Assembly: GCA_965644295.1 (NCBI GenBank)
Contig: CBFFRP010000283.1
Location: 17,799 to 81,798 of the forward strand
From: Paraphysomonas bandaiensis
Lineage: Eukaryota; Protista; Chrysophyceae
Direction of reading: 5' to 3'
DNA: 64,000 nt
The notes under the pieces were generated by a model. It was not told the origin of the DNA and did no database searches. It saw only the letters and a program-made list of their open reading frames with translations. A program made the position numbers and the translations under genes. Positions 243-63,904 of the stretch are shown here, one piece after another (position 1 is the stretch's first letter; the number at the start of each line of letters is the position of its first letter).

Positions 243-692
243 TTCTGGGGAAAAATACCGGAGATATTTCTCCGGGAAACTAACGTGAGCCGCAAACATA
301 GACAGCAGATATTGTTCTGCCCACTCACAGCTGAATGCTTGTGTGGTACAAGGGGCATAATAGTGTCAATTGTGTAGACGTCTTTGGGCCTTGACAAACA
401 GGAATAGGGGAATGGACCCACCTCAAGGGTAACGGTATTGGGATGCCTGCTGAAGTCAAGCATCCAGGATGTCCACCTTAAGGACTCAAAAAACCGAAGT
501 CAACAGATGTCAGGTATATCAACATGCTGCTTGCTCACTGCGTTTGAGTCTTTGATTGATAGAGCGGAGGTGATTGCACCTTGATGCTTGCGGTGACGCA
601 TAATCAGCTTTTGTAGCGTTAAATAGTAGGATATCAAAGTTAAGCACTGACTCATAAACGCCTACAATGTATTGATAATAAGAAGACATTAA
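243..692 (+). mobile_element. SINE-like non-autonomous repeat: ~250-bp hairpin-rich body plus LINE-derived 3' tail
   Basis: 243-488 is closely similar to 31733-31962 (e.g. GGGAAACTAACGTGAGCCGCAAACATAGACAGCAGATATTGTTCTGCCCACTCA is shared). 562-640 matches the 3' UTR motif of the LINE at 4161-8631. Confidence 0.7.
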
Positions 693-1941
693 CTGCTATT
701 GTTATCAACTTCATAATATTATATTGTTCAATACTGTCTGCTGTAAATACTGTATTCTTCAAGTAACGGCTATAATTCAAAACCTTAATATACACCTTTT
801 AATACTCAAAATTGCTATTCTCAACATAATTAATTTAAAATTATGCTAAACTTTCTCATCGTAATCATTGCAACTTGATACTTTGATTAACTGTGTTTCA
901 ATTAATTAGTAATAATAATTACAATAATATTTAACTGTCACAACCTTTTAGTTTAAGCTACAGTATTTAGTTTATTAACTTTAAGCACGACTCTTAAATT
1001 TTTACTCGTTTTGTTTCCAGATATGAGTATATATACACTACTAAAGAAACGCTAACTGATGAAATTCTGCTTGTCATACTCCATACATTATTTTATGGTC
1101 AAATACCTCCATTGAAAACACATATAGCGTTAAAGTTCTTTGCTACATTTTTCAACAAACTACGATATATATGGCATGACTAATTACTTTTATGAGACAA
1201 CTATTTACGATAGTATAAATATTTAACCACGGGAAATAAGGAGGCATGAGTTTTTGAAAACTTAAGATTAGATTGTATAGCTATTAGTAACTTGCTCACT
1301 GTAAGAAGAAATAGATGTTTCCTGATTAACATTAAGAAAGAAAATGAGAAGTCATATTGTTTTAAATCAATGGTATGTACACTGTGTGTAGATCAACTCA
1401 AACAATAAACCCCCAAATTTATATATATATTAGCTTCAACAAAATGTAATACAATTTGGAGTATTTGATGGTCAGTTTTGAATAGTTGAGCGAGTCTACA
1501 AATGTGTAATGTGTAATATAATGAAATCACATACAAATGACTGTCAACATTATAATTAAGACAGAAAAGGGCTTCTGTTGAACCGAATATTGAAGTTGAA
1601 TTTCTATATTTGCCCGTGCTAATATGAGCGTTCTGTTGATACAAAATCAGGTCAAAGAAAAGCTTTTTTGAGCCAAAATGGGGATAAGATGTTAACGTAT
1701 TTTAAAATAATTTTCTTTCCAACTACATTTTGCTATTAATAACTTACTATCTTACTATCACAACATACAGAGCTCAGTTAGAAAGTATTGATTTTCACCG
1801 TAGAAATTGTGCATATTATGTAGTGTGCGAACATATCTCTTGAGTATAACATAACTCTGTAACACAATACCAATCATTTCGTTTATACAAACATTTGTAC
1901 ACAAACTCTAAATACAATACGATAAGTGCTAAACTTTATGA

Positions 1942-2760
1942 TCAAGTATCACTACTGCAGGAATCGTCTGACGCAGTACAATTATTTTCGGGTGCAGCAA
2001 AGCAAAAAACAGTCCTTTTCTGGTGTTGAGAATCTGTTTGCACAGAAGGACCAGTCCCATTCGCCCAGAAGGTTAGAGCCATTCGCTCTCTAAAGCAAGG
2101 TAACACAGCATGATCGACCAATTCGCTGCGAAAGACAACCAGTCTCCCAAATAGCGGATCTATATCGTAGCCATTAACTCCCCAGAAATTGAATGGCGCG
2201 CCAGTATTATCAAGTAGTATACCGGGCTTCGTGAATACCCGCAACCTACCCCCATCCTCTGGTTCCCAATCCTTGTTCAGGTAAAACAAACATGTGAGTT
2301 GGCGGGAGCTAATAACTTCAAGTGAATCCGAATGATCGGACTTAGTGGAGGACGACTTAGGGAAGGCGTCTCTGTGTCGGTTATACCCCTCACCTTTACC
2401 CGGATACACTGCAAATTGTATACTATAATCAGAAGTAAGACCAAGAGTGTCCTTCATAACACTACACTCATTAATTATAGTACGAACAAATCGATCCACA
2501 GCAGAGAGCCTCAGCTCCTGACACAACTCTGGTGTAACCCAGCATAAAGAATCACCACGGATATTCTCATCTCCCCATATCTGATCCCCTTTATTCATTC
2601 TTGCTTGATGTAAGTGTTGTTTTAACAGCTGGACCTCATCCAGTACACTCTCTGCTAAATCGTCAAAAACATTGTCCTTTATGACTACACATGGACTTGT
2701 ATCAGTTGATGATGCGGTAAGAACATCAATATCCTCATTGGAAAACATTTTACCGCTCAT
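1942..2760 (-). CDS. 2OG-Fe(II) oxygenase, EGLN/PHD (SM-20)-like prolyl hydroxylase family
   Basis: Motifs RGDSLCWV, YNRHRD (HxD), RQLTCLFYLNKDW..GGRLR, PLFGRLVVFRSE..HAVLP and RMALTFW. ATG taken at 2760. Confidence 0.85.
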   Translation of the reverse strand: MSGKMFSNEDIDVLTASSTDTSPCVVIKDNVFDDLAESVLDEVQLLKQHLHQARMNKGDQIWGDENIRGDSLCWVTPELCQELRLSAVDRFVRTIINECSVMKDTLGLTSDYSIQFAVYPGKGEGYNRHRDAFPKSSSTKSDHSDSLEVISSRQLTCLFYLNKDWEPEDGGRLRVFTKPGILLDNTGAPFNFWGVNGYDIDPLFGRLVVFRSELVDHAVLPCFRERMALTFWANGTGPSVQTDSQHQKRTVFCFAAPENNCTASDDSCSSDT

Positions 2761-3944
2761 GACTATATAGCAGTGTCTGTAGACGGCGCTTCTCACTGCA
2801 TGTTCTGAACGACATAATCAGCAATCAGTCATATGTCTAGATGTCCAGTATGTGTATCTATCACTATACTACACCAGTACATAGTTATGGGTTTATGGTA
2901 TACTGTTGTATACATATACGGCATACTGGTATACGCACACCTTCATGCCAACACCACAGCACAACAACACTGCTATATACATGTACATATCCCGCTGATA
3001 TATGGACATCATATATTGAGACGGTCTAGTCTACAAGGCAGTAGATACCAAGGCACAGTAAGTTTACTACAGCAAAGCATCATCATAATCTGAAGATTGT
3101 GAAAGCAAGGTTCTAGCTGCTTTGCTATAGTAAATTTACAATGCGTGACCTTCTACTAGCCCACATACATTCCTTACGTAGCATTATTGTTGTGATTTCA
3201 ATGACCTGAAAACAAGATCAGGGAGTAGACATGTGGTAAAGCCGTTACCACACATGGCCTCGGTCATTGACCATACAGGTACTCGGTATGACATAGTGAG
3301 CAAGTAGAGGAGATGGTTTATACTCTGACATTTGTGCTGACTTCAGGATTGTTGAGCCCTTCAGGTGAACTCATCCCGTATGCTTGTTTTGTCAAAGCCC
3401 AAAGGAGTTACACATGATATACTTATTTGTGTATCTTGCAATATATAAGCATTTATCTGTGAACATGTGAACTAGTATCTGCTGTGTTAGTTTTCCAAAT
3501 AGAATCATTTCCGTACGTACCCCAGAAAACTACGAATAGTTATGACTCCCCATTTATACTTGTCTCACACAAATGGTGTTGTCGAGGTTAGCACTTGTCG
3601 AGCATGTAGAAGTAACTGTTAATTTTTCTATTGTAGCATTTCATGTTTAGATATGTTCTAAATTTCTGATAAGTCCTTCAACTTACATTTTCGAATATTT
3701 CTCTGCTTCTTCGTTTTGGTCAATAACGTGCTTGTACTCGTACTTGTATCACTGTATGTCTTCAACGTATAAGTCGAATATATACGTGTACTTTTGGACT
3801 TCTGCAGATCAACTCGTGATGGTTTCCCAGGGACATTGGTTAAGAATAGGTGATTTTTGCTTCTGTATCTTGTTCTTATTATTTATTTTTTGAGAATATA
3901 TCTGAAAAACATTTTAATTAGAAGCAAGTTTGTGCGTCTAAATT

Positions 3945-4160: not shown

Positions 4161-7100
4161 TATTGAATGTCTTTTTATTTAGCAATAGGCGTTAAAAACC
4201 CGTTCCGATATAGCGGCTAGTTGAATACTAGTCTACTAGTTAGACCTCTACCCATAACTAATCAGCGCAAATTCTATTATCCTACTATTTAACGCTACAG
4301 AAGCTGCTTGTGCGTCGCCGCAAGCACCAAGGTGCAACCACTTCCGTTCTTGATGTTGTGTGTGAGTTCGCCCTGCTCGTGTGTCTGAGGACTCACTGGC
4401 GCGTGTTGTCCGGGGGTCTCCCCTTGGGATACGGTTCCGCCTGACTCTGAGGTACCGGGTTCTGTATTAAGGTCCTGAGTGTACCGAGCACTAGATGTGT
4501 GGACTGAGAGGTTGATGGTGTGGTGGAATGTGGCGGTGTCGCCATGCACCGTTTGGGCGTTGGGCATAGGTGGAGTTGCCGGAGACGTCGTCGCCTTTGT
4601 CTAGGGCCTGTTGGTTTCATACGGTCCGTTGCTATGGTCCTCTGTGTATGGTTGGTAGGGTTCAGAGGTACGGTGGGCGGTGTTCCAGTCTCGGTTCGTC
4701 TGTGGATTCCTAGTAATCTTAGCACCCTTGGGCGTTTCCGTTTCTGTCTGTGGTTTGGACTCGGCCGCGGTAGTAGCCTTGGGGGGCCTTTCCGTAGGGT
4801 CACGTATCTTCTTCCGCGATCTTGGATCATGAGCTTTGCTGCAGCGAACAGCGGTAGCAGTAATTTGATGATCGCTGATTCGATGCTGCGCAGTCCTTGG
4901 GATGTCAGTGATTCATGGATGTGATCTCCAAAAACCATTTCAAGCTGTGTCATTGTGATGGTACCCGTCCAGAATCTCTCCACCTGTGGCACGGAAGGGT
5001 TCCAGGCCCTGCTGGAGAGTCGCTGGAGTACAGTGGTGGTCCATTGGGGTAATTCCGGATTCCTCATTTCTTCTAGGAGCGCGTTTTTGTGGCTGTGAAA
5101 TGCAGACTCCCTTATCTGCGTTATGGTGTCGTTTGTGCAGTCTAGACACATATGCTTGAGTGAGTCTAGTCTAAATCCGCAGTCAGAGCATACGGCTTTA
5201 GCCATGTCGAGTCCGTGTTTGGTTTTCGCCCGGTTTCTTCCTATGCTGAAGGATTTGTCCCATGTCAGTGCTGCATTTAGTACTCTTTGGCGCAGGTGGG
5301 AGCTCACTTTGTCCTTTGATGGTCCACCATCTGCTTGCGCCAGTTTGCGCGGAAGTAGTGCTCCGCTGTCTTTCCAGTATCCAGGAGCCCGGTCGGGATT
5401 GTGACCGTAGCGTTGGTCTCGGAGAGCTGTATATGCCTCCAGCGTCCGTTGATTACGGAGGGATTGGAAATCCGTGAGCAGGGGGCTAGTGCGATACGGC
5501 CGTCGTTCCCCAGTTAGGCGCCAGTGCCATAAACCCTCGGTGAGTATTCTCTCGATGGCTTGGTCCACTTCCATGTTACAGACAGTGTAGTTTTGTCGTC
5601 CGAGTAGTCGATCTACCTCAAGCCAGTCCCCTCCTGCTACTGCGTCGGCAATGTAAATTCCTTTGTCTTCATATGTCCATTCAGACTCATCAGAGGTGCG
5701 TCGTTCGGGGTGTGATCGGACCCAGGCTACTGTCCTTGTGCAATCGTTATTTGCTGCAATGCTTTCGAGCAGTACACCTTTGGCACGATGCCCCAGTGCC
5801 CGACGTCTGGCGGAGAGTGCTTCGTGTGTGCGTATGCAGACGGCCTTACAGTCCGTATTTATCGGTATGTGTGATGGGAGTCGCGCAGACAGTATAAGCG
5901 CCATTGCTGCTCCCATGAGCTCGTATGCATACGGGCCAAGTCCAGGCACGTCGCTGAAGGGTGTCTCTAATCGCAGTATTTTTGTTGTACCGTTCTTCCA
6001 TTCATCCTCCGGGGGGAGCCAGACTGCCGCCGCTCCTCCATAATGTGCCCATCTTGTACGTGGGTTTACATGCGTAATGCGGCGCGGGGATAGGGCTGTA
6101 GGCGTGTATGAGCCGTCGGTGAAGATTGCCTGATATGTATCCGCGGTTACATCATCCAGTTCTAATGTGCGGATAATGTTGATCAGGGTGTTGGTATCTT
6201 GAGGTTCCGGACTGTCGGGTTGTTGGAGAGTAAGGCCAACCTCCGTACCCCATTCCCGCAGAATTAAGGCAAAGTGGTGGTAGTTTGGGTACGGCGCGAT
6301 AGTCTGTGTTAGGAGAAAGTGCGCTGCGTCACCGGCATCACCGCCTAGGATTATGGCGCGCTGTAGGGAGCCCCATTTTTGTTCTTGAGCGGAGTCTGAG
6401 AAGCGTTTCATTCCAAGTCCATTATGCCTGAGAGAGAGGTAGATCATTTCCGTGGGGTAACCAGGACTCAGGCTTAGTGCTTTCCTGTAAAGGTTTGCGC
6501 ACGTTGAATCGATGTTCTTGTAATATTGCAGGGGCCAAGAAGCCTTGGTGGCCTTGTAAAGTAGAGTGGGTATGATTTGGGTCTCTATAACCATGACTTT
6601 GCAACCCGCTGAGGCGTGCCTGATCCCAAGGTGTGTGCCCGCTGCCTTTAGGTAGTTTGTACACCAATTGTATGAGTCCGTGTCTGTAGGTGTTAGTGGT
6701 AGATCCGCCCCCAAATAGTGTATCGATTCATGAGTCGTTTGTATTGGTACAGGTTGGGGTCTCCAATACCAGTCATATAAGGTAATGTGTCCGGTTTGTT
6801 TGACCTGGGCTAGATTTTCCCGTAGGTGAGGGAAAAAAGTGCAGATAACCTTAGGTACCGAGAGTTCCATTCCCGAGAAGCTGCAGAACGCCGACATTCG
6901 TATCGCCGTTTCCTGGGCTTGAGTGATAGACACATCTATGGTGGTGATGTCATCCGCGAAGGAGACTTTTTTCTTTGAGTTCGGGGTCAGTAGGAGTGGT
7001 GATGGTGTAAGACAGATTGCTCTAAGATCTAGGTCTAACCATGTAAGAAGGATATCGTGTAGCGCCACCCAGGCACAAGTGGATTCGGTTCCCCCCTGTG

Positions 7101-8631
7101 TGATTCCTCTCACGGCCTCAAATCCGAGTACGAACTGTGCAAGGAAGTGTCCGTCGGTAGCTAGAAGTTCTGCCAACGAGCGTGGCTCCATGTTGTTCGC
7201 CATGAACGGCGTCCATGGGAATGTGAGACCCCCAGCGTCTAATTCTCCAAACCATTCAACCACAGCATCGGGGACACCTAGCCGAGCCCATGCAAGTTTC
7301 ATTAGATTAGGTGTTATGGAGTCGAATGCTTTTTTGAAGTCCCAGAGCGTGCAGATGTGTTGGGCATTGTGACGTCTGGCTGCCTCTGAGGCCGCTAGAA
7401 CCCTTAAAATGGCCGTGTCTGTGCCATTTCTCCAGCGATATCCATGTTGGGACGGGTGTAGGATCTGCTGTTCCTCCCACAGACTGTGAGTATCCTGTGG
7501 GAGATTATTCTTGTCAGAATTTTCCGTGATATTTCGAGCAGACCGATCGGTCGAAGGTTGGAAAAAGAGGGTTCTCCTGGTTTCTTGAGTATGGGGGTCA
7601 TTACTCTGTCTCTCCACCAAGTAGGCACGTGTTTGTGCTTCCAGAGCGACTTGATAAGGGTGAATGCTTCCTGTTGTATGGCTGGAGGCCAGGATTTGAC
7701 CATGTTGGATGAGACCATGGAGGGTCCGGGAGCCCGGTTGAAGGATATGGAATGTAGGGTGGAGTAGAATTCTTCGTGCGTGATGTCCTTCTCTAAAGCC
7801 TTTCCGAGTAGGTCCGCCATTTCTGGTTTAACTTTAGTGCATAGTGCACGTCGTAGTCCGTGTTGTAGGGTAAAGGGTATGTGCGAGCACGGATGGAGGG
7901 GCTCCTGGGAAGTCACCGATTGAGGGTCAAGGAGGGTTTTCCACCAGTTGGGGTCGTCCTGTAGTCTTTGTGCGACTGGGTCCAGTCCTGCAGGTTCCGC
8001 GTGGTGGTCTCGAAAGTGTTTGTTGATTCCTTCGTGGATGTCTTGCGGGGTAGTGAGAAGTGTCCCGTCAGTAGTTCTCACTGTCGTTAGTCGAAGTGGC
8101 GTTTTGATTTTGAGTCCTATCTTCTGCAGTACTGCTTGTAGTCTTCTCTGTTCTAGTAATGCTTCCATTTGGTTTGTACGGTCTGTGAGCCTCTTGCGCA
8201 TCTCCGTCCTGTCTCGTCCGTGCAAGAGTCCTCGCATTCGAATCACAATGTGTAGAAGGTTCTTCTTGGTGACTTGTTTGGCAGTCCAGCTCAGAATGGC
8301 TCTGGGGTCTGCTGATCGGTAATCATTCCTGAAGTTGATGTCGGCTATTCCTTTCGCAGGTCCCGTGGAGTTTTGGAGGTACGAGTTCCCGCGCTCCTGC
8401 CAGGCGGTGATGAGCGCGTGGATCGGATTGCGTAATGGGGATCCACGCCATCCGTGTCTTTTATATCCAGCTGAGTTAAACATTTTCTGAACTATCTTTA
8501 TTACCATGACCATCCCTTCTTGAATTACCCTCATTTCCGGGGAGAAACCATCTTTAAAATGTGAACGAAGTCGCTGACACCGGTCATGGAGCCTCGTGCG
8601 ACGGCTGTAGCGGGGACCCTTTGCTGTAAGC
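4161..8631 (-). mobile_element. 5'-truncated non-LTR retrotransposon (RT + RNase H + CCHC finger) with 13-bp target-site duplication
   Basis: GACTTGAATTATT occurs at both 4148-4160 and 8632-8644. The interior is GC-richer than the flanks and encodes RT and RNase H motifs. Confidence 0.9.
4393..8534 (-). pseudogene. LINE ORF2 (reverse transcriptase-RNase H), single frameshift near 7480, endonuclease domain missing
   Basis: RAPGPS, PILKK..NLRPIGLL, SQHGYR, WDFKKAFDSI, RGITQGG, SFADDI and YLG are RT motifs. IFTDGS, YAYELMG, NTDCKAV, WVRSH and ADAVA are RNase H motifs. CSDCGFRLDSLKHMCLDC is the CCHC finger. ORFs 7404-8534 and 4393-7620 join as HRILTV/WEEQQILHPSQHG after removing a 2-nt insertion. 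Confidence 0.88.
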
Positions 8632-9096
8632 GACTTGAATTATTACTATGAGACATAAGACTATAGATCCGTCACATTTTATTTCATATGTAAGGCTAAT
8701 CGGGTAATCTTGCCAATCCTTTTAGTACCTGATGATTCTATATATAATAAGTCCGTAGAGTTACATGGAGTAATGATTCTTCGTACATGATGGTTTAACA
8801 CTTAACACAGTACACAGAACCGCTATAGGCATATATATTATATATCTATTGAGGTTGTCCGTAGTGTTCCATCAACTTATTGGACATTGGACACCCTCAT
8901 CAGTCCTTAGCACATTCAGATTTTTGCACAGATAAACTACATTTGCGGTTAATAAGTTAAGATATACTTCTCTGTAAAAGTTGCAATCCATCATGACAGG
9001 CACGTAAAGATAAACAACAACATAAATCAACAGCAGAGAGTCTCTACCCAGAACAAATATAGCAGTCAAAATATTTCACTAAATATAAACATGAGT

Positions 9097-49938: not shown

Positions 49939-51966
49939 GACAAACCTGAACCTCAAGATGCACATACCCTGACCAACATTATACGCACATTAGGTCTCGA
50001 TGATGTCAACCCTGATACGTACCAAGCAATCTTCACAGATGGATCATACACGCCCGGAGCTCTTTCCCACGCCGCCTTACGCATTTACACCCGCGCACAA
50101 GATGGACACATCTCGAAGGAGCGGCGGCTGTCTGGCTCCCCCCGGAGGATGCCTGGGAGAACGGCACCACTAAAATCCTGCGTCTAGAGACACCCTTTCG
50201 AGACGTTCCTTGACTTAACCCGTACGCGTACGAACTCATGGGAGCTGCTATATGGCACTTATACTCTCTGCGTGACTCCCTGCGCACATACCGATCAACA
50301 CAGACTGTAAAGCCGTATGCATCCGCACTGACGAGGCACTTTCCACCAGACGTCGGGCCCTACGACATCGCGCCAAGGGTGTACTGCTTGAAAGCATTGC
50401 GGCAAATAGAGCTTGTAAAAGCGGAATGTAGACTGGGTCCGATCACACCCCGAACGACGCACCATGGATGAATCTGAATGGACATATGCAGACAGAGGCA
50501 TCTACATTGCAGACGCCGTAGCCGGGAAGGACTGGCTTGAAGTTTACCGACTACTGGGCCGACAAAATTACACACTGTCTGTGATATCGAAGTAGACCAA
50601 CAAGCCATTGAGCGAATACTTACGACGGGTTTATGGCACTGGCGCCTATCCGGGGAACGACGGCCGCATCATACGAGTCCCCTGCTCACTGACTTCCAAA
50701 CCCTACGCAACCAACGGACGCTGGAGACCTACACTGCACTTCGAGATCAACGTTATATGGCCACAATCCCGACAGGGCGCCTGGATACTGGACAGACAGA
50801 TAGCACTACTTCCGCGCAAACTGGCACAAGCAGATGGTGATCCATCCAAGGATAAAGATAGTTCCCACCCTGCCTACGCCAGAGAGTACTCAATGCAGCA
50901 TTGGCATGGGACAAATCTTTTAGCATAGGGAGAGACTGGGCTAAAACCAAACAAGGTCTTGACCTGGCCAAGGCCGCATGTTCTGACTGTGGCTTTTGAC
51001 TAGACTCACTCAAACACATGTGTCTAGACTGCACAAATGACACCATCACCCAGATAAATACAAGAGACTGCCTTTCAAAGACACAAAAACGCGCTCCAAG
51101 TGATACTGAGAGATCAGGATCTACCCCACAGGACCACCAATGCGCTAGAGGCTCTCCAGTAGGGCCTGGAGCCCCTCCATCCCGCAGGTGGAGAGATACT
51201 GGACAGGTACCATCACCACAGCTCAACTCGAGATGGTTTTTGGAGATCACATCCATGAGTCCCTGACACCTCAAAGTCTGCGCAACCTTGAGGTAGCGGT
51301 CATCAGTCTGCTTCTCCCGCTTTTAGCTACAGCAAAGCTCATGATCCAAGATCGCAGTCGCCGCTATATATTACCCTACACAAAGGACCTCCTAGGCTAC
51401 TCCCGCGACCGCGTCAGAAACGTAGTCCGTCATGGAAGCGCCCAAGGGTGCTACGATTACTAGGAGTCCGTAGACGACCCGAGACTGGACCACCGCACAC
51501 ACGAACCCCACCAATCATATATACCCACAGGAACATATCACCGCCCCTCAAGAAACCCTCAGGTCCTCGACTACGACGCCGTCTCCGGCAACTTTACCTG
51601 TGCCCGAGGCCCAAACGGTGCACTGCGACAGTGACACATTCCAACTCTCAATCCACCTCTCAGCCCACACACCTAGCACTCGTCGGTATACTCAGGACCT
51701 TACTACAGAACCCTGCACCTCCACAAAAAGCCCAGTGGAGTCTCATCCCAAGGGGAGACCCCCTGATCACACGCGCCAGTGAGTCCTCACAATCAACATT
51801 AAGAACGGAAGTGGTCGCGCCAACAAGCAGCTTCTGTAGCGCTAAATAGTAGGATAATAGAGTTTGTACTGATTAGTTATGGGTAGAGGTCTAAATAGTC
51901 TGTCTAGCATTCAACTAGCCACTACATTGGTGCAGATTTTTAACGCCTATAATAAGACTATCAATA
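49939..51966 (+). mobile_element. Decayed 5'-truncated copy of the RT-RNase H LINE (RNase H to 3' end)
   Basis: PEPQDAHTLTNIIRTL..YQAIFTDGSYT, YAYELMGAA and LKHMCLDCTNDTITQI match the 4393-7620 ORF, with many stops and frameshifts. It ends in TTTTAACGCCTAT..AGACTATCAATA like the 4161 end. Confidence 0.9.
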
Positions 51967-54569: not shown

Positions 54570-55913
54570 ATGGAAGCGAAGAATACACTCCCTGCTATCC
54601 CAAGTGCACAACAACCAGAGGAAGTAGAAGACGACGACGAGGACTTGTTTAATTCATCTGATGAATCAAGCGATGACGAAGATGGAAATAGAAAAACAAA
54701 TCTTCAAAGTGTGAATAGTTATTTACGAAAGAAAAAGAAGAACTTTCTTAAGATGTTTATCGATTATGGACCGCCTTATACAAAAATGGAAACTGGTATC
54801 ACTTTATTGGATGAATGTGCACTGCCAGAGCCATCTTTATTTGAGATTCATTCAATGTTGAATGCTAGAATTACTCCTAATTTCCAGGACCCTGAAGACT
54901 ACTATAATTCTGCAATGCATTGGTGCGCGAGACATGCTCATTTGCGAGCTATGAAACTTTTGAAACGAGCAAAAGTTGAAATGAACCCACAAAATGAGTT
55001 CGGCCAGACTCCATTGCATATATTATGCATGATGGTTTTCCCGGAAGACAAGAGGAAGCGCCAAATGAAGACATTTAACTGGATGTTATCTCAGGGCAGT
55101 AATATAAATATTCGCGATAAAGGCGGCTATTGCCCGATAGATTATGCCGCAATGAATGGCCATGAGCTTATGGTGGAAATATTACTTGAGCGCGGAGCTG
55201 AGGTGCTACGTGACAATCACACTTTTGTTGCCACTCGTCAGCAGCTTTTACATGTCACAGTGGGAGAGAATGCGAAACGAATGATTCAAGACCGCATTCG
55301 TAATGTGGTCGCTGAAAAGGAAGCTGAGGTAGAGCGTAAACGCATAGAGAAAGCAATTGCAGAAGAAGCTGCGAATCTTAAAAAACGACATGCTCGTTTG
55401 GCACGTAAGAGACAAGAGGCGATAGAAGCCAAAGCGATCGCTGACGAGCGCGAGTTCCAGGAAAAAAAGGAAGCAGAGAAGAAAAAGAAGCTCGAAGAGG
55501 ACGCACGGTTGCTGCGACAAGAGCGAACTGCGAGCAATAAGCGTTTAGGGGGATGGAAAAAGAAGGGATATAATGGTAGGTGGGAATATCAGAACAGAGA
55601 AGGGCCTGTTGACAAGAAAGCTGAGAGGGACGAGTTGTATCATAGTAATCGGAGATTGATGAAAACACTTCGTGATAAGAATAAATTCGAAGTATACAAC
55701 GACCGATGGAAACGCACAACAGGAGGAAGTGAGTTAGAAGTTGTCTGGACGAAGCAAGCAGTGTTTGACATACCTGATTTGGATTCAGATGATGAGAAGA
55801 GCGACACAGTTCAGAAGAGAAAGCCTAAGGTCATTGACAGTCTGGCCTATCATGATGAAAATGATGCCGAGCTAGAAGGGGAAGACATAGATGATTTACT
55901 AGAATTCACTTAA
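54570..55913 (+). CDS. Ankyrin-repeat plus coiled-coil protein
   Basis: NSAMHWCARHAH, GQTPLHIL and GYCPIDYAAMNGH..LLERGA, followed by an E/K/R-rich helix. Intronless 447-aa ORF. Confidence 0.8.
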   Translation: MEAKNTLPAIPSAQQPEEVEDDDEDLFNSSDESSDDEDGNRKTNLQSVNSYLRKKKKNFLKMFIDYGPPYTKMETGITLLDECALPEPSLFEIHSMLNARITPNFQDPEDYYNSAMHWCARHAHLRAMKLLKRAKVEMNPQNEFGQTPLHILCMMVFPEDKRKRQMKTFNWMLSQGSNINIRDKGGYCPIDYAAMNGHELMVEILLERGAEVLRDNHTFVATRQQLLHVTVGENAKRMIQDRIRNVVAEKEAEVERKRIEKAIAEEAANLKKRHARLARKRQEAIEAKAIADEREFQEKKEAEKKKKLEEDARLLRQERTASNKRLGGWKKKGYNGRWEYQNREGPVDKKAERDELYHSNRRLMKTLRDKNKFEVYNDRWKRTTGGSELEVVWTKQAVFDIPDLDSDDEKSDTVQKRKPKVIDSLAYHDENDAELEGEDIDDLLEFT

Positions 55914-56657
55914 ACAATGATATTGTGTAGTTTATTTGTAACCGTATACGGTTCACTGAAATATTTTAAGTTGTGTTTTGTATATACCTAGGCTTTAGCA
56001 CAAGTTCTTGTATTATATTCGACCTGTAATGAATACAGTACCTTCATATTCACAGTATAGAAATCAAAGAATTGATACATTGATATATATTTAGACTAAT
56101 TTATAATGCACTATTAAGTGATACAATACTATGTGATCCTTACGTCGCGCAACACAGCTACGAAAGCATAATGAACAACAAGCAGAAAGCTAGTGAATCT
56201 TAATTAAATTAATTGATACTGTTACTATACGTACCACAGTATTCGTTTTTAACTTCCAACATTAAACTCATAACATAGTACGCTACCACGAACCTGCACA
56301 CACACAGAGAGAGGGGGGGGGGTCTTCGACCCTAGCCGTGTTAACCGTGACCATAAAAACTATTAATTTATACTGACCCTTACCCCTATGGTATCGCTGT
56401 GTATCACGTACAAGTGCTTCCAATATTGTACATTACATTTTTTTATACACTTTTTTGCATAAAAAATGTCGTGTCACCTTTCACAATAAAAAATGCAAAA
56501 AAAATCTTATTTTCACAAATTCTGTAACAGTATACACTACATTTTTTACAACATTTTTCTTAAAAAAAAACTTTTTTCTAAAAAATAAATATCAGAAATA
56601 AATATTTTCAACAAAAATGTCAAAAAAAATGCAATCAAAATAAAATAATACTATACA

Positions 56658-56733
56658 TATTAACCCCAGCGATCAACCGACCCTATTAACCAAGCGATCA
56701 ACCGACCCTATTAACCAAACAATCAACCAACCC
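56658..56733. repeat. Three tandem 25-26-bp subterminal repeats
   Basis: TATTAACCCCAGCGATCAACCGACCC / TATTAACCAAGCGATCAACCGACCC / TATTAACCAAACAATCAACCAACCC. Confidence 0.95.
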
Positions 56734-56873
56734 TGACTTAAACACCGAACAATTACAACAGATAGACGGAACAACAGACCTGTTTAACACTATATATAGA
56801 CATGCCGTATTTTACTCCCTGTTTTACATATATAAGAATATAAAATAATAAAAAAATATATAGTTATATTATA

Positions 56874-57305
56874 ATGTCAAAAGAAATAAAATATTTCAGT
56901 TGTTGTGAAAATGTTGATTCCGAGCGTAACGGTAAGTACTATTACAAACATAAAAAGTACATTCATAAAAATCCTTCTGACTGTTTAAAACATAAGTTAA
57001 ATAGGCCAGCTGATGAAGTCAATGATATAATAAGCAAACGGTTTAAAAAGGATGCTATATATAGTAGTCTTCTTAGTTTTGTACCATGTAACAATTCACC
57101 TGAATGTTACGAATGGCATGATAAATTTATTATTGATTCAGGTTTAAGAGAAAATGAAGATGATGATATTCAAGATGAATTTTATCTTAAAAATAAGTTT
57201 TGGGATTCAGTTGTTTATATTATTGAAAATGACGGCAATAAAGAGAAAATGGAAGCGGATAAGTGGACATATTCAATGAATATTATTGATAATATAATTT
57301 GTTAA
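56874..57305 (+). CDS. Viral hypothetical protein, family A (paralog of 58094-58540)
   Basis: Shares IKYFxCCENVD, SDCxKHKL, DEVxDxIxxRFKK and YIIENDGNKxKMxxxKWxYSxN with 58094-58540. Preceded by the element promoter motif. Confidence 0.8.
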   Translation: MSKEIKYFSCCENVDSERNGKYYYKHKKYIHKNPSDCLKHKLNRPADEVNDIISKRFKKDAIYSSLLSFVPCNNSPECYEWHDKFIIDSGLRENEDDDIQDEFYLKNKFWDSVVYIIENDGNKEKMEADKWTYSMNIIDNIIC

Positions 57306-57344
57306 AAACATTATAGAATTATTTTTTTGTAATGATACATTATA

Positions 57345-57674
57345 ATGTCAAAGGCCGAAAGTAATAAATTTTTCTTTATGGAAATGGAAGGTAAAATTTT
57401 TAGTGTTAAACGTGATTACAAAACAAACGTACAGAACGAAATAGAACAAGGCAAAAAGGAAATGAACATTTTAATAGATAAACAGAATAACATAAATGAA
57501 GAATTATTAAAACTTAACAATAAAATAAGTGATAAAAAAATGTCTTTGTTAACTAAGAGGCAGCTATTAGAATTATACTGCGGCAAGAAACGCATACCGT
57601 GCTTGGATTTTTTCAAAAAAAATGTTACCGATGTTTATATTGATGATGACACAGACAGCGACGAGGACTGTTAA
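57345..57674 (+). CDS. Viral hypothetical coiled-coil protein, family B
   Basis: Intact ORF with TATAATG start. Similar layout to 57773-58057 (hydrophobic-xGx-F/Y head, heptad stretch, RQL motif). Confidence 0.7.
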   Translation: MSKAESNKFFFMEMEGKIFSVKRDYKTNVQNEIEQGKKEMNILIDKQNNINEELLKLNNKISDKKMSLLTKRQLLELYCGKKRIPCLDFFKKNVTDVYIDDDTDSDEDC

Positions 57675-57772
57675 CAGCAATAAAACATTGACTATTAAAT
57701 TATAATTTATTTCAATTATTACATATGTAAAAATATAAAATAATTAAAAAAAATATATAGTTATATATTATA

Positions 57773-58057
57773 ATGAGTGAGTATTTATTAAAGTTGAAAG
57801 GAGAAGTGTACTGTATTAGAAAAACACATATGCCTAAAATTCAGGAAGAGATAAGAAATTTAGACAGAGAAATAGAAGACATGAAAATTACATTATCAGA
57901 ACTTCAGAAACAAAAGAAAGAGTTACAAGTAGAGCTATTAAATGAACGGCAATTAATCATATATGAAAATAAAGACGAAGATAAAAGGACTGAATTATTA
58001 AGAAAATATGATTTTCTACACGGTGAATATCGCAGTGATTCTGTAGGATGGAAATAA
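57773..58057 (+). CDS. Viral hypothetical coiled-coil protein, family B paralog
   Basis: Intact ORF. Its upstream ~55 bp is nearly identical to that of 56874. Confidence 0.7.
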   Translation: MSEYLLKLKGEVYCIRKTHMPKIQEEIRNLDREIEDMKITLSELQKQKKELQVELLNERQLIIYENKDEDKRTELLRKYDFLHGEYRSDSVGWK

Positions 58058-58093
58058 AATATTATAATAATATAAATATATGCTGTTATTATA

Positions 58094-58540
58094 ATGCCAC
58101 ACACAGATATAAAATATTTCATATGTTGTGAAAATGTTGATGATGAAGCAAAAGGTGAATGCGTGGATGATAACGATATAATATATAAACATCGTGATTG
58201 TTCTGACTGCAAAAAGCATAAATTAAGTAAAACAGTTGATGAAGTTCAGGATGTAATACACAGACGTTTTAAAAAACGTTTTGATGTCGCTATGTTACAT
58301 TATCCTCATGAATTTTCTACATTTTTAAATAATTGTTCAGAACAATATATTAACGATAATAATTTAAAAGAAAGAAAAAACGAAGTTATTACCAAAGATG
58401 GCCGTTATTTATGGGATAAACTCTTAAATGCAATTGAATACATCATAGAAAACGACGGAAATAAAAGAAAAATGAAAACAAAAAAATGGAAATATTCATT
58501 AAATGTTGTTGACAAACTAATGGATGATGATGATGATTGA
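58094..58540 (+). CDS. Viral hypothetical protein, family A paralog
   Basis: Colinear conserved blocks shared with 56874-57305. Confidence 0.8.
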   Translation: MPHTDIKYFICCENVDDEAKGECVDDNDIIYKHRDCSDCKKHKLSKTVDEVQDVIHRRFKKRFDVAMLHYPHEFSTFLNNCSEQYINDNNLKERKNEVITKDGRYLWDKLLNAIEYIIENDGNKRKMKTKKWKYSLNVVDKLMDDDDD

Positions 58541-58811
58541 TAAACTGATAAGGTAAATTAAGGGATAAAAACGCGATAATTGTTCGCGAAATTATCCCTT
58601 AGATGTAAAATATATAAATATATTATGTGATATACTTATATATGGTGAATATCGCAGTGATTCTGTAGGATGGAAATAAAATATTATAAAAAAATGCAAT
58701 TGATAAACTGATAAGGTAAATTAAGGGATAAAAACGCGATAATTGTTCGCGAAATTATCCCTTAGATGTAAAAAAATATATAAATATATTATGTGATATA
58801 CTTATATATGG
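58536..58811 (+). repeat. ~110-bp direct repeat (58536-58645, 58699-58811), each copy containing a 43-nt hairpin
   Basis: TAAGGGATAA-AAA-CGCGA-TAATTGT-TCGCG-AAA-TTATCCCTTA at 58559-58601 and 58722-58764. Confidence 0.95.
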
Positions 58812-59038
58812 ACGGCCTAGAATGGGAAATAAACTATGATAATTATGAATTTCCAAAGAAAAATATTATAGACTTAGACAGAGTAATTAACTTAGACACA
58901 CCAAAATTAAACAGAAATAATAATATAGATACAGACATGTTGACTTATGATTTTGCAGAAATAAAAATATCTAATAATGTTAATGGAGAAAATACAGATT
59001 GTTCTAAACAGCAAGACAGCAAACCAATACCTAAATAA
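58808..59038 (+). CDS. Small viral hypothetical protein
   Basis: ATG at 58808 after TATATATG. Its 3' end overlaps the minor capsid start. Confidence 0.45.
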   Translation: MDGLEWEINYDNYEFPKKNIIDLDRVINLDTPKLNRNNNIDTDMLTYDFAEIKISNNVNGENTDCSKQQDSKPIPK

Positions 59039-59714
59039 TAAAACTACTGATTGTATTTTTATATTACCAAAGATAGATGTTAAACGACGTCATAAAGCCT
59101 ATATATCAGTAATTGATGCCTCTATCCCATATTCATTTTATAATGTTAATTCAACCAATAACACACTGAATTATACATTAAATAGTATCCCATATTCACT
59201 TACAATTACAAAAGCCAATTATAATATTAGAACTTTAATAAGTTTTTTACAGTCCAATTTAGAGCCAGGATTTACAATAACTTATAACTCATCAACTAAT
59301 AAATTACAATTTACCCATAGTACTTATGATTTTTCTTTTTCAAATACTTCAACCTGTTTTGAATTATTAGGATTTGAAGATAATATACCCTATTATTCAG
59401 ATTCATTAACATTATTATCAACAATTGGTATAAATTTATTTACAATAAGAAACGTTTTAATAGCATCGTCAAATTTCGTTTTAAATAATATAAATAGTGC
59501 TACACCTAATAAAGCCTCTATTATTACCTCTGTACCTGTTGATGTTAATGCAGGATCTATTATTAATTATAAAAATATTAATAATATTAAGAGCTTAGTA
59601 CATGATATACATAATATAAATACTTTACATGTCCAATTATTAGACCAAGACGCAGATGTATTGGAATTAAACGGTTTACATTGGTCTTTAAATTTATTAT
59701 TAACTATTGAATAA
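58977..59714 (+). CDS. Putative minor capsid protein (penton, single jelly-roll) of PLV
   Basis: Beta-rich 245 aa with IVLNSK, SIPYSFYNVNSTNN, NYNIRTL, ELLGF, IITSVPV and LHVQLLDQD..LELNGLHWSLNL, the pattern typical of Polinton/PLV pentons. Adjacent to the MCP. Confidence 0.72.
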   Translation: MLMEKIQIVLNSKTANQYLNNKTTDCIFILPKIDVKRRHKAYISVIDASIPYSFYNVNSTNNTLNYTLNSIPYSLTITKANYNIRTLISFLQSNLEPGFTITYNSSTNKLQFTHSTYDFSFSNTSTCFELLGFEDNIPYYSDSLTLLSTIGINLFTIRNVLIASSNFVLNNINSATPNKASIITSVPVDVNAGSIINYKNINNIKSLVHDIHNINTLHVQLLDQDADVLELNGLHWSLNLLLTIE

Positions 59715-59744
59715 AAAATATTTCTCTCAATATAGTGTATATAC

Positions 59745-60185
59745 ATGTCAAAACTAGGCAAAAAGCTAAATCGTAAATTTCGTAAACTAGGACGCAAGGC
59801 GGACCATCGCATACATAAACTAGGACAAAAGACGCACGACGTATTAGATAAGGTCCAACATGGAGTAAATAAAGGTCTTGATAAATCAGCAAAAGCAATT
59901 AACGTAGCAGATAAAATATTAGGCGTCGGCGATAAAACTATACACGCTATTAATAAAGCAGGATTAAATACAATGCCCGTTGTTGGATCAGCATCTAGAC
60001 TATTGGAAGCAGGATTACACGAAGGACATAAAGGAGTACATAAGCTACATAAGCTCCATAATAAAGCCGATAAACACAGTAAAAAAGCATTTAAAAAGGC
60101 TCATAACGCAGGTAATAAATTAGAAAAACACAACACAAGAAAAGCTTTAGCTAAGTTAACACAAGATGATAGCACATTTATATAA
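59745..60185 (+). CDS. Highly basic Lys/His-rich viral protein (putative core/DNA-condensing protein)
   Basis: KLGKKLNRKFRKLGRKADHRIHKLGQK and HKGVHKLHKLHNKADKH repeats around a PVVG amphipathic segment. Lies between minor and major capsid genes. Confidence 0.6.
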   Translation: MSKLGKKLNRKFRKLGRKADHRIHKLGQKTHDVLDKVQHGVNKGLDKSAKAINVADKILGVGDKTIHAINKAGLNTMPVVGSASRLLEAGLHEGHKGVHKLHKLHNKADKHSKKAFKKAHNAGNKLEKHNTRKALAKLTQDDSTFI

Positions 60186-60233
60186 ATTATATTTTATTAT
60201 ACTATAAAAAATATTTATCTATTTATAGTATAT

Positions 60234-61589
60234 ATGTCAGGATTACCAAAAAACGTATTATATACAAATAATATAAATTCAAGTTACGCACGTAATTACC
60301 AGAATAATATAGCTCCACAGAATGGTTTAGGGCCATATGGTGCAGGAGAGACCATAATTATTAATGTTCCTACCGGTCGTAATCTCGTAATGTCGGGTGC
60401 TGATTCACTTTTAAAATTAAGCTTAATAGTAAACACAGAAACATCTGACCCTGCGACCACAGCAGAATACGTCAGACTAGATAAGGCGGGTATTCATTCC
60501 CTAATTTCTAGAGTGCGAGTATTTCATGGCTCTACTTTACTTTCAGATATTCAGAATTATAATAATCTAGTTGGTCAGTTAATGACTTTGCAACAGTCCA
60601 ACGACTCTTTTATTAACAAACACACAATTTTATCAGGAACGGAATGTTTCAGCCTTATTGACACCGCTACAAACACAAACGAGGGTTTAATTGTTGGTGA
60701 AAGACTTAATGAATTCACACAAGTTGCGAATGGGGGCAGTACAACTAAACGATATTATACAGTACCAATAATGAATTTTTTAAGCTACAGTGATAAATAT
60801 ATCCCACTGTTCGCAATGACTGGCGCGCCTTTACGACTAGAAATAGTTCTGGTTAATAATCCATTAGAGGGGATAAACTGCGATAAAGCCATAACATCAA
60901 TAGCTATTAATGACGTTGAATATGTTTGTAATTTTATGGAGTTATCAGATGACGCAATGAATAAAATTAATTTGGCATCAAATGGACCTTTAAGGTGGGT
61001 TGTACAAGATTACAGAAATTATTCACATACTGGAAATATTGCCGCTAACGTTGAACTTAGTGTACCCGTACCCGCTAAATATAACTCTTTAAGATCTCTA
61101 TTTTTCAGTATGCGCGATAAACACGCTGGAGAAGTCACCTATTTCCCGTTGTCATCAAATCATTTCGGTCTAGAGTCATACAGTGTTAGATTAGGTAGTA
61201 AGACCGTACCAACTAAAGCACCTAGTTGCCTTCCTGAATTTTTCGGCGAATTGATCAGAGCAATTGGAAGCGTAAGCGATTTGAATCATGAACCAAGCAT
61301 TAATATAAATACTTATGATATGCAAGCGTCAGCAGCCAATAGCGAGACAGCAGCCGATTATAACGGGTGTGCAGCATCATCCAACTTTTATTTAGGTTTA
61401 GATTTAGAAAGTTACAGCAGCTCAGGTATGGAAACAGTATACCAGGGTTATAATTCTAGCACTGACGATATATTTTTTATGCCTCGTTTTTCCTCAAGTG
61501 CCCCCACTGTGACCGCACGCATAGATACATACGCTTATTTTGATCAAGTCATTTTGATTGAAAACGGTTTTGCAACATTGCAATATTAA
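60234..61589 (+). CDS. Putative double-jelly-roll major capsid protein of PLV
   Basis: 451 aa, beta-rich. MSGLPKN..IAPQNG..GETIIINVPT, LISRVRVFHGSTLLSDIQNYN, KYIPLFAMTGAPLRLEI, KYNSLRSL and FYLGLDLESY motifs recall PLV MCPs. Confidence 0.8.
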   Translation: MSGLPKNVLYTNNINSSYARNYQNNIAPQNGLGPYGAGETIIINVPTGRNLVMSGADSLLKLSLIVNTETSDPATTAEYVRLDKAGIHSLISRVRVFHGSTLLSDIQNYNNLVGQLMTLQQSNDSFINKHTILSGTECFSLIDTATNTNEGLIVGERLNEFTQVANGGSTTKRYYTVPIMNFLSYSDKYIPLFAMTGAPLRLEIVLVNNPLEGINCDKAITSIAINDVEYVCNFMELSDDAMNKINLASNGPLRWVVQDYRNYSHTGNIAANVELSVPVPAKYNSLRSLFFSMRDKHAGEVTYFPLSSNHFGLESYSVRLGSKTVPTKAPSCLPEFFGELIRAIGSVSDLNHEPSININTYDMQASAANSETAADYNGCAASSNFYLGLDLESYSSSGMETVYQGYNSSTDDIFFMPRFSSSAPTVTARIDTYAYFDQVILIENGFATLQY

Positions 61590-61672
61590 ATTTATAAAAA
61601 ACCTTTAGATTTTTAAAAAAATAAAAAATTAAAAAATTTATTATTTAAAAAATAATATATATTTGTATATTA

Positions 61673-63235
61673 ATGAGTACAAAAGAGAGTTTTGAAAAGT
61701 TTGATTTAGAACACCTTGATAACCTGACTTATGAACAGTCAAAAACTTACGTAACAAATTATTTTTTCCCACTTACAAGCGGTGCACATGCATATAGAAC
61801 AGGACATAAAAAATTTAGCATTATGGAACACAAAAAAGTTAAAGAAACGTATTTTAACAGAATGGATAAACGGATAGCAAAATATTATTTCACTGAATTT
61901 AAAGGGCTTCGTGAAATAGTTTATGAATTAGGTAAAGGTATATTCCCTGATAAAAAGAAATTAAATTTAGCCGCTCAGTTTGCACATGACTATAAACCAT
62001 ATGAAGACTTTGATGATGAGAGTAAGGAAGGTGTACAGGCGTTTTTATCATATATTAAAGAAATATTGGCATCCAATGATCAGGCGCAATATGAATATTT
62101 ATTAAAGTGGTTTGCAAACATGACAAAGGGTAATAAAAACGAATCTATCATTTTCCTAAAAGGCCCTCAGGGTATAGGTAAATCAACCATATCCCTATTT
62201 ATGAATACTTACGTGCTTGGCCGTGACCTGTGTTTAGAGGCTGGCGCGGACGTGTTGACATCTAAATTTAATTCAGATCTGGGAGGTAAATTATTTGTAT
62301 ATTTTGAAGAATTAGAAAAACAAAGCAGGGCTGATTGGGACGCAATCAATACTAAATTAAAACGATATACGACGAGCGACGTTTATATAATAAATCCAAA
62401 GCATGAGTCAACATATCAGGCTACAAATATTAATAATTATTTAATTAATGCAAATTATAGTTTAAATGAAGAATGCGGAAGAAGGTATTTTATTTGTGAT
62501 ATTTGTTGTAAAAAACGCAATGACTTAAAATATTTTGGATGGCTACGTAATCTATGCTTTAATAACGAGGTTGGACATGCTTTTTACTGTTATTTAATGG
62601 AATACAACACAGAAAAATTTTATAGTCAAAATTTTCCCATCACAAAAAACAAGTTAGATGCATACGCCAAGAGATTGGGAAGCGTTGAAATGTTTTTAAA
62701 GGATGAATTTATATTAAAGAGATTGGATATAAATAATATACTTGTTAAAGAAATATTTAACCATTATATCCAGTATTGTACTCAAAATAATATTAAACCA
62801 GTTAAACATACAATTGATTTTAATAAGGTCATGAGTGAATTAAATTTTATTCACAAAAAGAATAAAGATAGGCGTAATGTGTACAATGTTACATTAGACG
62901 AATTAAATAAAGTTTCTGAATCTTTACATTGGGTTCATGAATTAGATGAATATGATGATGGCCCTGATGTAGAATATAACATTAAAGATACAATTAAAAA
63001 ACGTTGTAATAATCAAAGTAATAAAACAAATGATAACACCATTGCAAGCGCTATTAAAAAGCTTAGCAATAAAAAAAGCGATAAAACAGATGAAGATACA
63101 GATGATGATACAGATGATGATACAGATGAAGATAAAGATGAAGATACAGATGAAGATGATGATGAAGATGAAACACCCCGTGTAAGTCAGAAGACAGTGA
63201 AAGATATAATGAAAACTTACGGAATAAATATTTAA
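61673..63235 (+). CDS. Superfamily-3 (D5/NrS-1-like) DNA helicase with acidic tail
   Basis: EYLLKWFA, Walker A GPQGIGKS, SKFNSDLGGKLFVYFEE (Walker B), INPKH and GRRYFI arginine finger. 12-bp GATACAGATGAW repeats at ~63086-63172. Confidence 0.85.
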   Translation: MSTKESFEKFDLEHLDNLTYEQSKTYVTNYFFPLTSGAHAYRTGHKKFSIMEHKKVKETYFNRMDKRIAKYYFTEFKGLREIVYELGKGIFPDKKKLNLAAQFAHDYKPYEDFDDESKEGVQAFLSYIKEILASNDQAQYEYLLKWFANMTKGNKNESIIFLKGPQGIGKSTISLFMNTYVLGRDLCLEAGADVLTSKFNSDLGGKLFVYFEELEKQSRADWDAINTKLKRYTTSDVYIINPKHESTYQATNINNYLINANYSLNEECGRRYFICDICCKKRNDLKYFGWLRNLCFNNEVGHAFYCYLMEYNTEKFYSQNFPITKNKLDAYAKRLGSVEMFLKDEFILKRLDINNILVKEIFNHYIQYCTQNNIKPVKHTIDFNKVMSELNFIHKKNKDRRNVYNVTLDELNKVSESLHWVHELDEYDDGPDVEYNIKDTIKKRCNNQSNKTNDNTIASAIKKLSNKKSDKTDEDTDDDTDDDTDEDKDEDTDEDDDEDETPRVSQKTVKDIMKTYGINI

Positions 63236-63284: not shown

Positions 63285-63539
63285 ATGAGAGATAAATTTA
63301 TAGTAGAAGTATATGATAGTAATAATAATCTGATTACATCACAAAACTTTACATCCTATAAGGCAATAGCTCAGGAATACGATATACAATATTCAGAAGC
63401 TAGGAAACTTAACGCTTTATGTGAGTCACGTACAACATGTAAATACTTACATCCATCATTAAAGCGACTGATTAACAGAATAAAAATTTATGATATTAAT
63501 AATATAAATAATTATGATATTAAAAAAATAAAAATTTAA
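63285..63539 (+). CDS. Small viral protein, NUMOD1-like DNA-binding fold
   Basis: IVEVYDSNNNLITSQNFTSYKAIAQEYDI resembles NUMOD1 helix-turn-helix modules. Conserved promoter motif upstream. Confidence 0.5.
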   Translation: MRDKFIVEVYDSNNNLITSQNFTSYKAIAQEYDIQYSEARKLNALCESRTTCKYLHPSLKRLINRIKIYDINNINNYDIKKIKI

Positions 63540-63571: not shown

Positions 63572-63904
63572 ATGGACAAATATAAGTTTTATAAGATTGA
63601 TGAGAAGGACTTTAAAAACTCAGTTGAAATTACGACCAGATTCAGACACAGAAAAAAAGGTAAAGAATTAGATGTACCCGATATGCACTTTTTATATGAT
63701 ATGATTGAGGAAAACTTACCAGAAGATGCTAATATAATGGTTAGAGCGTTAAATGGTCACAGATACTTTACATTTAAAGGGTATACTAGTTACCATCTGA
63801 ACGTTCAGGATTTTGATGACTATTATAAAAGCTCAGTCAAGAATACTGAGAAATTTGAGAAGTTTGAATTTATTGATATAACGGTGTTCATGTCTACGAC
63901 ATGA
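63572..63904 (+). CDS. Viral hypothetical protein
   Basis: Intact 110-aa ORF with the conserved upstream motif. Confidence 0.7.
   Translation: MDKYKFYKIDEKDFKNSVEITTRFRHRKKGKELDVPDMHFLYDMIEENLPEDANIMVRALNGHRYFTFKGYTSYHLNVQDFDDYYKSSVKNTEKFEKFEFIDITVFMSTT

Follow-up and report, generated by a model that had tools for sequence, protein, structure and literature searches.

Two genes near one end of a low-GC segment of the window (the window being the whole 64,000-nucleotide stretch of DNA that was analysed), termed A and A', have about an even chance of being two older versions of an orphan gene that is carried, in accessory cassettes bracketed by repeats, at one end of an integrated Polinton-like virus (PLV). 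The product of each is likely a small protein, stabilized by zinc, which would bind a host or helper-virus protein via a variable central patch.

A and A' belong to a group of four open reading frames that had been listed by the first-pass annotation; all four are on the + strand and were confirmed to have an ATG and a stop codon. Gene A (positions 56874–57305, 143 aa) and gene A' (58094–58540, 148 aa) are members of an orphan Cys/His family, as seen from the open reading frame list, their alignment to each other and, for A', an AlphaFold2 model. Between them are gene B (57345–57674, 109 aa), which is predicted to be helical with an acidic tail, and gene B' (57773–58057, 94 aa), whose structure model displays a predicted long helix (aa positions 3–65) and a short helix (69–82). 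The blocks CCENVD, SDCxKHKL, RFKK, IIENDGNK and KWxYS are each found once in A and once in A'. A pairwise alignment of the two proteins shows 58 identical residues out of 141 (score 277, z = 34), with no score as high in 2000 shuffles, and confirms their paralogy. Overall aa identity is 41%; the DNA displays 70% identity over 223 nt and 72% over 94 nt.

B and B' had been described as related small coiled-coil proteins. Judging from their alignment, kinship is probable but not certain. The two show a weak similarity of 20 identical residues out of 81 (score 66), a score that none of 2000 plain shuffles reaches but that is matched by 3 of 5000 heptad-class shuffles, 45 of 5000 shuffles of 7-residue blocks and 319 of 5000 shuffles of 14-residue blocks; the reversed protein scores 44. 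The N-terminal parts alone score above all 5000 shuffles. Near-identical proteins to B' are P0019–P0021, and the scan of IMG/VR, which needs near-exact words, yielded no relatives of B. The B' model (pLDDT 85, pTM 0.50) was built from three sequences and has no BFVD match at E ≤ 0.001, a long helix being uninformative as a query. All six listed variants of B are non-synonymous and three of the four of B' are synonymous. Summed contig depth relative to the core is 0.17–0.47 for B (4/4 runs) and 0.18–0.62 for A', although these values cannot rank the genes, and diverged alleles drop out. B' looks like the steadier helical gene; its probable relative B appears to change faster and to accompany A.

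The mirror arrangement A-B-B'-A' holds as a gene order but not as the outcome of one inverted or single tandem duplication. A single inverted duplication is ruled out by the + strand that all four genes share, and a recent in-place duplication of A and A' by their location in separate clades of the family tree (see below). In addition, A+B and A' have direct repeats of their own, and the mirror order is thus not the result of one duplication. These direct repeats, which bracket A+B and A' separately, had been overlooked in the first-pass annotation, as had the membership of A and A' in older, separate clades.

The first A+B bracket is P1 (56824–56876), in the AT-rich region upstream of A, and the second is P1' (57719–57775), in the region upstream of B'; the two are 89% identical over 57 nt, a similarity that is in part due to a shared promoter type. 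S1 (58014–58073) comprises the 3' end of B' with its stop codon and is 92% identical over 60 nt to 58636–58695. S2 (58536–58645) supplies the stop codon of A' and contains a hairpin at 58559–58601; it is 97% identical over 113 nt to 58699–58811. A comparison of the junctions shows a second S1-S2 unit (S1'+S2', 58636–58811), which has a few bases where A' and the region upstream of it would be. All of these repeats are direct and are given on the + strand. The layout is P1-A-B-P1', then S1-A'-S2, then S1'-S2' without A'. Repeat scores are 72 bits for P1/P1', 87 for S1/S1' and 189 for S2/S2'; the maximum in 100 local shuffles is 38.

In a multicopy element, an S1-S2 doubling may be an artefact of assembly. 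A related joint from S2 to S1 (58608 to 58026), whose short sides span 21 and 37 letters, is present in contigs of runs X1 and X3 and gives weak support to the doubling not being confined to this assembly. If the 50–110 nt repeats are sites of recombination among the many related copies, cassettes would be added, removed and moved by it. The brackets may also be plain recombination scars.

A second example of bracketing is seen with a distant homolog, P0024, which is 27% identical to A'. It is bracketed by a 73-nt repeat (92% identity) in contig L001 and by a 63-nt repeat (90% identity) in contig L002, and no B-like open reading frame is found inside the bracket in either contig. The two contigs share a 587-nt block at 97% identity and have different neighbouring sequences; L001 also encodes an SF3 helicase related to that of the window. 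A DUF5710 gene in L001 lies between 45-nt repeats (751–795 and 1299–1343 of that contig), so that bracketing is a trait that the A family shares with other accessory genes of these elements. These 45-nt repeats copy the 3' end of a gene that is whole in L002 (614–871), as if the DUF5710 gene had been inserted into a truncated gene.

The location of the array at the left end of a viral element, as first proposed, holds. Host-flank contigs (runs X1 and X6) align up to position 56292, depth jumps past that point, and GC drops from 0.43 in the rest of the window to 0.29 in the segment, which reaches the window end. The array starts about 0.6 kb inside the left end of this segment. Before it is a terminal non-coding region (56293–56850, not assigned to a strand, with an edge uncertain by a few bases), which is likely a terminal inverted repeat: summed contig depth at 56435–56848 is 1.7–3.4 times that of core bins in 4/4 runs, and a terminal depth about twice that of the core is a hint, and only a hint, of such a repeat. 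No second copy of this region is found within the window, where about 7.7 kb of the element is present. Inside the terminal region (56665–56740) there are three copies of a repeat with 25-nt spacing; X1 and X3 have a form that skips 71 nt.

Following the array are open reading frames of viral type, all on the + strand. ORF C (58808–59038, 76 aa) is from the open reading frame list and belongs to no family in Pfam. It is followed by a DUF5901 protein (58977–59714; Pfam E = 3.9e-8), which we take to be a likely minor capsid protein. The open reading frame at 60234–61589 likely encodes a double-jelly-roll major capsid protein (Atlas feature matches 0.97–0.98, which are a lead given without alignment). 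The Atlas clusters listed for it are all 90%–100% viral, and some have Capsid_N, DJR-like or Sputnik MCP annotations on 10%–29% of their members; the Sputnik MCP families occur on one of six listed rows, a weak sign of a virophage-type capsid. Pfam and PDB sequence searches show no direct match for it. A D5-like SF3 helicase is encoded at 61673–63235 (DUF5906, E = 7.9e-15; phrog_1156, E = 8e-23). Because of the double-jelly-roll capsid features, the SF3 helicase and the integration in a protist among related copies, the low-GC segment fits an endogenous PLV in the broad sense, of which any packaging ATPase, integrase, cysteine protease and right end would be located beyond the end of the window.

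Several other observations concern this segment. Between the capsid genes (59745–60185) is a 146-aa open reading frame that is very basic and Lys/His-rich, possibly a DNA-condensing core protein. Two small open reading frames are located 3' of the helicase (63285–63539 and 63572–63904), the former with a weak NUMOD1-like match (E = 0.01). In the capsid gene (60400–61500), some contigs have joints and dissimilar loose ends, an indication that segments of the capsid gene vary from copy to copy.

An ankyrin protein encoded in the flank (54570–55913) has matches in MMETSP and EukProt, and the host is thus a marine microbial eukaryote. Half or more of the sampled words are present in 10 of the 24 listed runs, which represent four coded organisms and one marine metagenome. 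Contig mapping covers positions 55400–61600 in 4 of the 24 listed runs, of which X1 may be the source of the window itself. Each of the four runs displays 291–3278 contigs with many variant letters over the mapped stretch, as a family of related element copies would give. The depth of the element relative to the flank is 23- to 105-fold, which is not a copy number. A contig of X6 at flank depth runs 1043 letters beyond 56292 and is likely an empty site, i.e. the insertion appears to be polymorphic between strains or species; the element start is near a CA/GA/G-run (56293–56330).

Searches with the A family gave four matches among 12 candidates, six at E ≤ 0.001 among 1.84 billion representatives, and seven among 820 candidates. 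The family consists of nine distinct 90% clusters, none of them named for a function; their sources are ENA, Logan, JGI, NCBI and Tara. That these are orphan genes and not well-known core genes is borne out in a comparison with Pfam and PHROGs profiles: A, A', B and B' are below the Pfam gathering score and the best PHROGs match is E = 0.009. Pfam gave no match better than E = 0.007 for 22 members of the A family, a PDB sequence search with the A profile gave none at E ≤ 10, and the Atlas search with A' had no usable match. Scans that require near-exact words were negative, both in IMG/VR (with A', the A-family alignment, the MCP, P0025, B and both helicases) and in JGI metagenomes and prokaryote genomes (with the A-family alignment). 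One candidate relative, L003, was dropped as a chance match in a phage-like contig, and a homing nuclease reading of the family finds no support in family or fold searches.

In a tree of 16 rows, one clade (support 98/96) holds A', P0001 and P0002 and another (support 100/100) holds A, P0004, P0018 and P0023; the tree has a midpoint root and long branches among the distant rows. By this alignment-based tree, A and A' belong to older, separate clades.

The A family has conserved residues that had been noted as possible metal ligands. Conservation in the aligned rows points to a predicted zinc site formed by Cys11, Cys12, His33 and Cys39 of A' (58124–58210, + strand). C11 is present in 19 of 22 aligned rows, C12 in 22, H33 in 21 and C39 in 21, many of the rows being close relatives. 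These residues are kept out to 21%–27% identity, and the Cys/Cys/His/Cys set is likely a zinc site, although this role stays a prediction from sequence. The AlphaFold2 model of A' (pLDDT 86.8, pTM 0.83; five models 75–87) shows short N-terminal strands followed by helices at aa positions 48–58, 65–68, 76–88, 105–120 and 130–142. Foldseek finds no PDB or BFVD match to it at E ≤ 0.001, and the best VIA hit among 48,161 chains has Z = 3.3 (rmsd 4.1, 68 aligned residues), with none at Z ≥ 5; this is not proof of a new fold, and residues 1–32 are barely covered. Bromodomain chains align to A' residues 72–147 at background level (Z 2.0–2.7, rmsd 3.6–4.3, 63–71 residues). The Tyr-Asn pair of the bromodomain motif, whose acetyl-lysine-binding Asn follows helix B of a four-helix bundle, is not matched, A' having Tyr-Ile there. 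Both proteins are acidic, with a net charge of −5 for A and −4 for A'.

Differences among alleles of both genes are clustered. In A' the variable patch is at residues 66–85 (58289–58348, + strand): 14 of the 15 differences between A' and P0001 and all 13 between A' and P0006 are in this segment (p = 0.0002). In A the patch is at residues 58–88 (57045–57137, + strand), with at least three allele types. A and P0023 have 14 of 25 differences within one 30-residue window (p = 0.001); in the A clade as a whole, 27 of 37 columns are variable at positions 53–89 vs 26 of 106 outside (p = 3e-7), and the window with the highest density of differences is at 54 or 57 in 9/9 pairwise scans of A (p 0.0008–0.015). 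An exception to this pattern is the pair P0001 and P0005, which differ mostly in the N-terminal third. Variant letters in the contigs cluster at 57052–57122 in A and at 58306–58337 in A', and an X1 contig shows no differences over 58105–58260, outside the A' patch. Two patch types are present together in one run for A' (X3 and X10) and for A (X1, X3 and X6).

The patch overlaps the segment that is best conserved among the distant homologs. Residues 60–69, with an RYISS(K/R)TL-like motif, show 61% identity in five distant homologs, whose mean is 31%, but only 26% in six close homologs, whose mean is 55%; the contrast has p = 0.002 and is also seen without P0003. The conservation in distant homologs may be in part a search artefact, because P0003 was in the search profile and three matches are at E 4e-4 to 9e-4. 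The A clade is mosaic by the four-gamete test, which 104 of 496 column pairs fail; such failures can also stem from repeated mutation or from chimeric metagenome contigs.

The proposal of arms-race selection is upheld in part. Allele differences are localized to one patch, as would be the case for an interaction surface under selection, but no non-synonymous excess is seen: of the 17 patch variants listed, 15 change the amino acid vs a neutral expectation of about 0.8 (p = 0.28), counts that come from 40 of 607 variant rows with each variant classed singly and are not a codon-level dN/dS. It is about as likely as not that the patch, carried in accessory cassettes, forms a binding surface on which diversifying or balancing selection acts. 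A loop with loosened constraint or a tract exchanged neutrally could also account for it.

Both could be part of a wider alternative, which is possible but on the whole doubtful: the A genes would be dispensable accessory genes with a loosened middle, in which the A and A' lineages have lost an RYISS(K/R)TL-like working site, the patch drifts or is swapped neutrally, and the repeats are scars. The patch variants fit the neutral non-synonymous share, the motif of the five distant homologs is absent from the six close ones, genes unrelated to the A family are bracketed too, and the six listed variants of B are all non-synonymous. However, drift alone would not leave the flanks of the A' patch near-identical (0–1 residue differences vs P0001 and P0006), nor does this alternative fit well with the same patch being variable in both clades or with the open frame and the Cys/His set being retained in all full-length alleles.

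A quite unlikely alternative places the A proteins between copies of the element, in self-recognition, superinfection exclusion or regulation of the element's own genes, and the patch would serve to distinguish kin from non-kin. One run does contain several related copies whose alleles differ, the genes are terminal, and an upstream motif is common to the A genes and the replication genes; on the other hand, A and A' are acidic, unlike typical nucleic-acid binders, and no co-varying partner sequence was identified. Less probable still is the obligate effector-partner pair (A with B, or A' with B') suggested by the first-pass annotation. A and B are within one bracket and B and B' are probably related, but A' is bracketed without a B gene, the adjoining S1-S2 unit is without A', and the P0024 brackets of L001 and L002 do not carry B. 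The profiles of A and B, when compared, are unrelated. A complex prediction of A+B with zinc gave a score of 0.00, was run without alignments and says nothing for or against pairing.

The AT-rich motif AATATAT is found within 40 nt upstream of A, B', A', C, the helicase and three later starts; it is not found within 40 nt upstream of B, D or the capsid genes. Since A, A' and B' share this motif with the replication genes, the A-family proteins and B' may be made alongside them. The word TCTA is present upstream of two capsid genes and occurs 20 times in 7.7 kb; according to PMC8547959 it is the CroV late and mavirus promoter. The hairpin after A' (58559–58601) has an RNA fold z of −4.6, reached by none of 200 shuffles, and is the strongest of the 11 genes scanned. 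It is duplicated before ORF C (58722–58764) and resembles giant-virus 3' end signals. Hairpin polyadenylation signals terminate 16 Sputnik genes, according to PMC6723459. TCTA and the hairpin would be weak hints, by analogy, of helper dependence of the element.

In the proposed process, the patch (about residues 58–88, with two predicted helices) would set partner specificity, and old patch alleles would be kept while recombination homogenizes their flanks. As the partner, a co-infecting giant-virus factor would be somewhat favoured over a host defence factor, from weak hints. A broader form of the proposal appears unlikely: that protist viruses keep a swappable library of bracketed cassettes of this zinc protein, possibly with a new fold, whose allelic patch decides which giant virus is parasitized or which host defence is blocked. 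If this were true, a host with many copies would carry a panel of antiviral specificities.

The closest known systems share the setting of the A genes. EMALE04/mavirus virophages of Cafeteria burkhardae have hypervariable accessory and terminal genes, according to PMC10945749. As described there, EMALE04, like the element here, is a small DNA virus that is integrated in multiple copies in a marine protist and has small optional open reading frames and a variable terminal region, which exists in several gene variants, at times two per genome. Unlike the Cys/His orphan family here, its terminal gene encodes an unrelated FNIP/FGxxFN repeat protein, and variation in one 20–30 residue patch and direct-repeat brackets are features of the present case. 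EMALE04 is also a virophage; the element here, which may or may not be one, is PLV-like by its capsid features and helicase. Endogenous PLVs of protists, according to PMC10120064 and bioRxiv 10.64898/2026.06.19.733378, likewise show a low-GC insertion, a double-jelly-roll capsid, an SF3 helicase and many related copies with variable gene content; in the parts surveyed, neither text describes the A family or repeat-bracketed genes. A third, looser comparison is with the genomic accordions of poxviruses (PMC9973261), in which terminal accessory genes are also gained and lost by recombination and paralogs are raw material for new specificity. These are transient, near-identical arrays under experimental selection, in contrast to A and A' with their 41% identity and separate clades. 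The A genes work in a similar way to the EMALE04 genes and, loosely, to the accordions, and are a member of neither. The literature surveyed, mostly open-access texts taken without their supplements and including portions of PMC12220804 and bioRxiv 10.64898/2026.07.28.741278, holds no description of the A family or of bracketed PLV genes. The A genes thus form a new orphan family, marked by its allelic patch, whose setting is a known one: the variable accessory genes at the ends of virophages and PLVs. The profile and genome sets that accompany PMC10120064 and bioRxiv 10.64898/2026.06.19.733378 may already contain the family as a conserved hypothetical.

According to PMC10945749, more isolates are needed to study what sets the match of a virophage or PLV to its giant virus. 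A direct handle on partner matching is offered by a short gene that is found in cultured protist material and comes in discrete alleles, told apart by a single 20-residue patch. The brackets also suggest a simple route for the gain and loss of accessory genes in these viruses. If the patch merely drifts, the A family would be no more than a common orphan family located in a variable region.

The host DNA of the window also has mobile sequences. Positions 4393–8639 (− strand) display open reading frames of a non-LTR-like retroelement, with reverse transcriptase and RNase H-like regions recognized by eye, and a partial second copy is present at 50753–51849.
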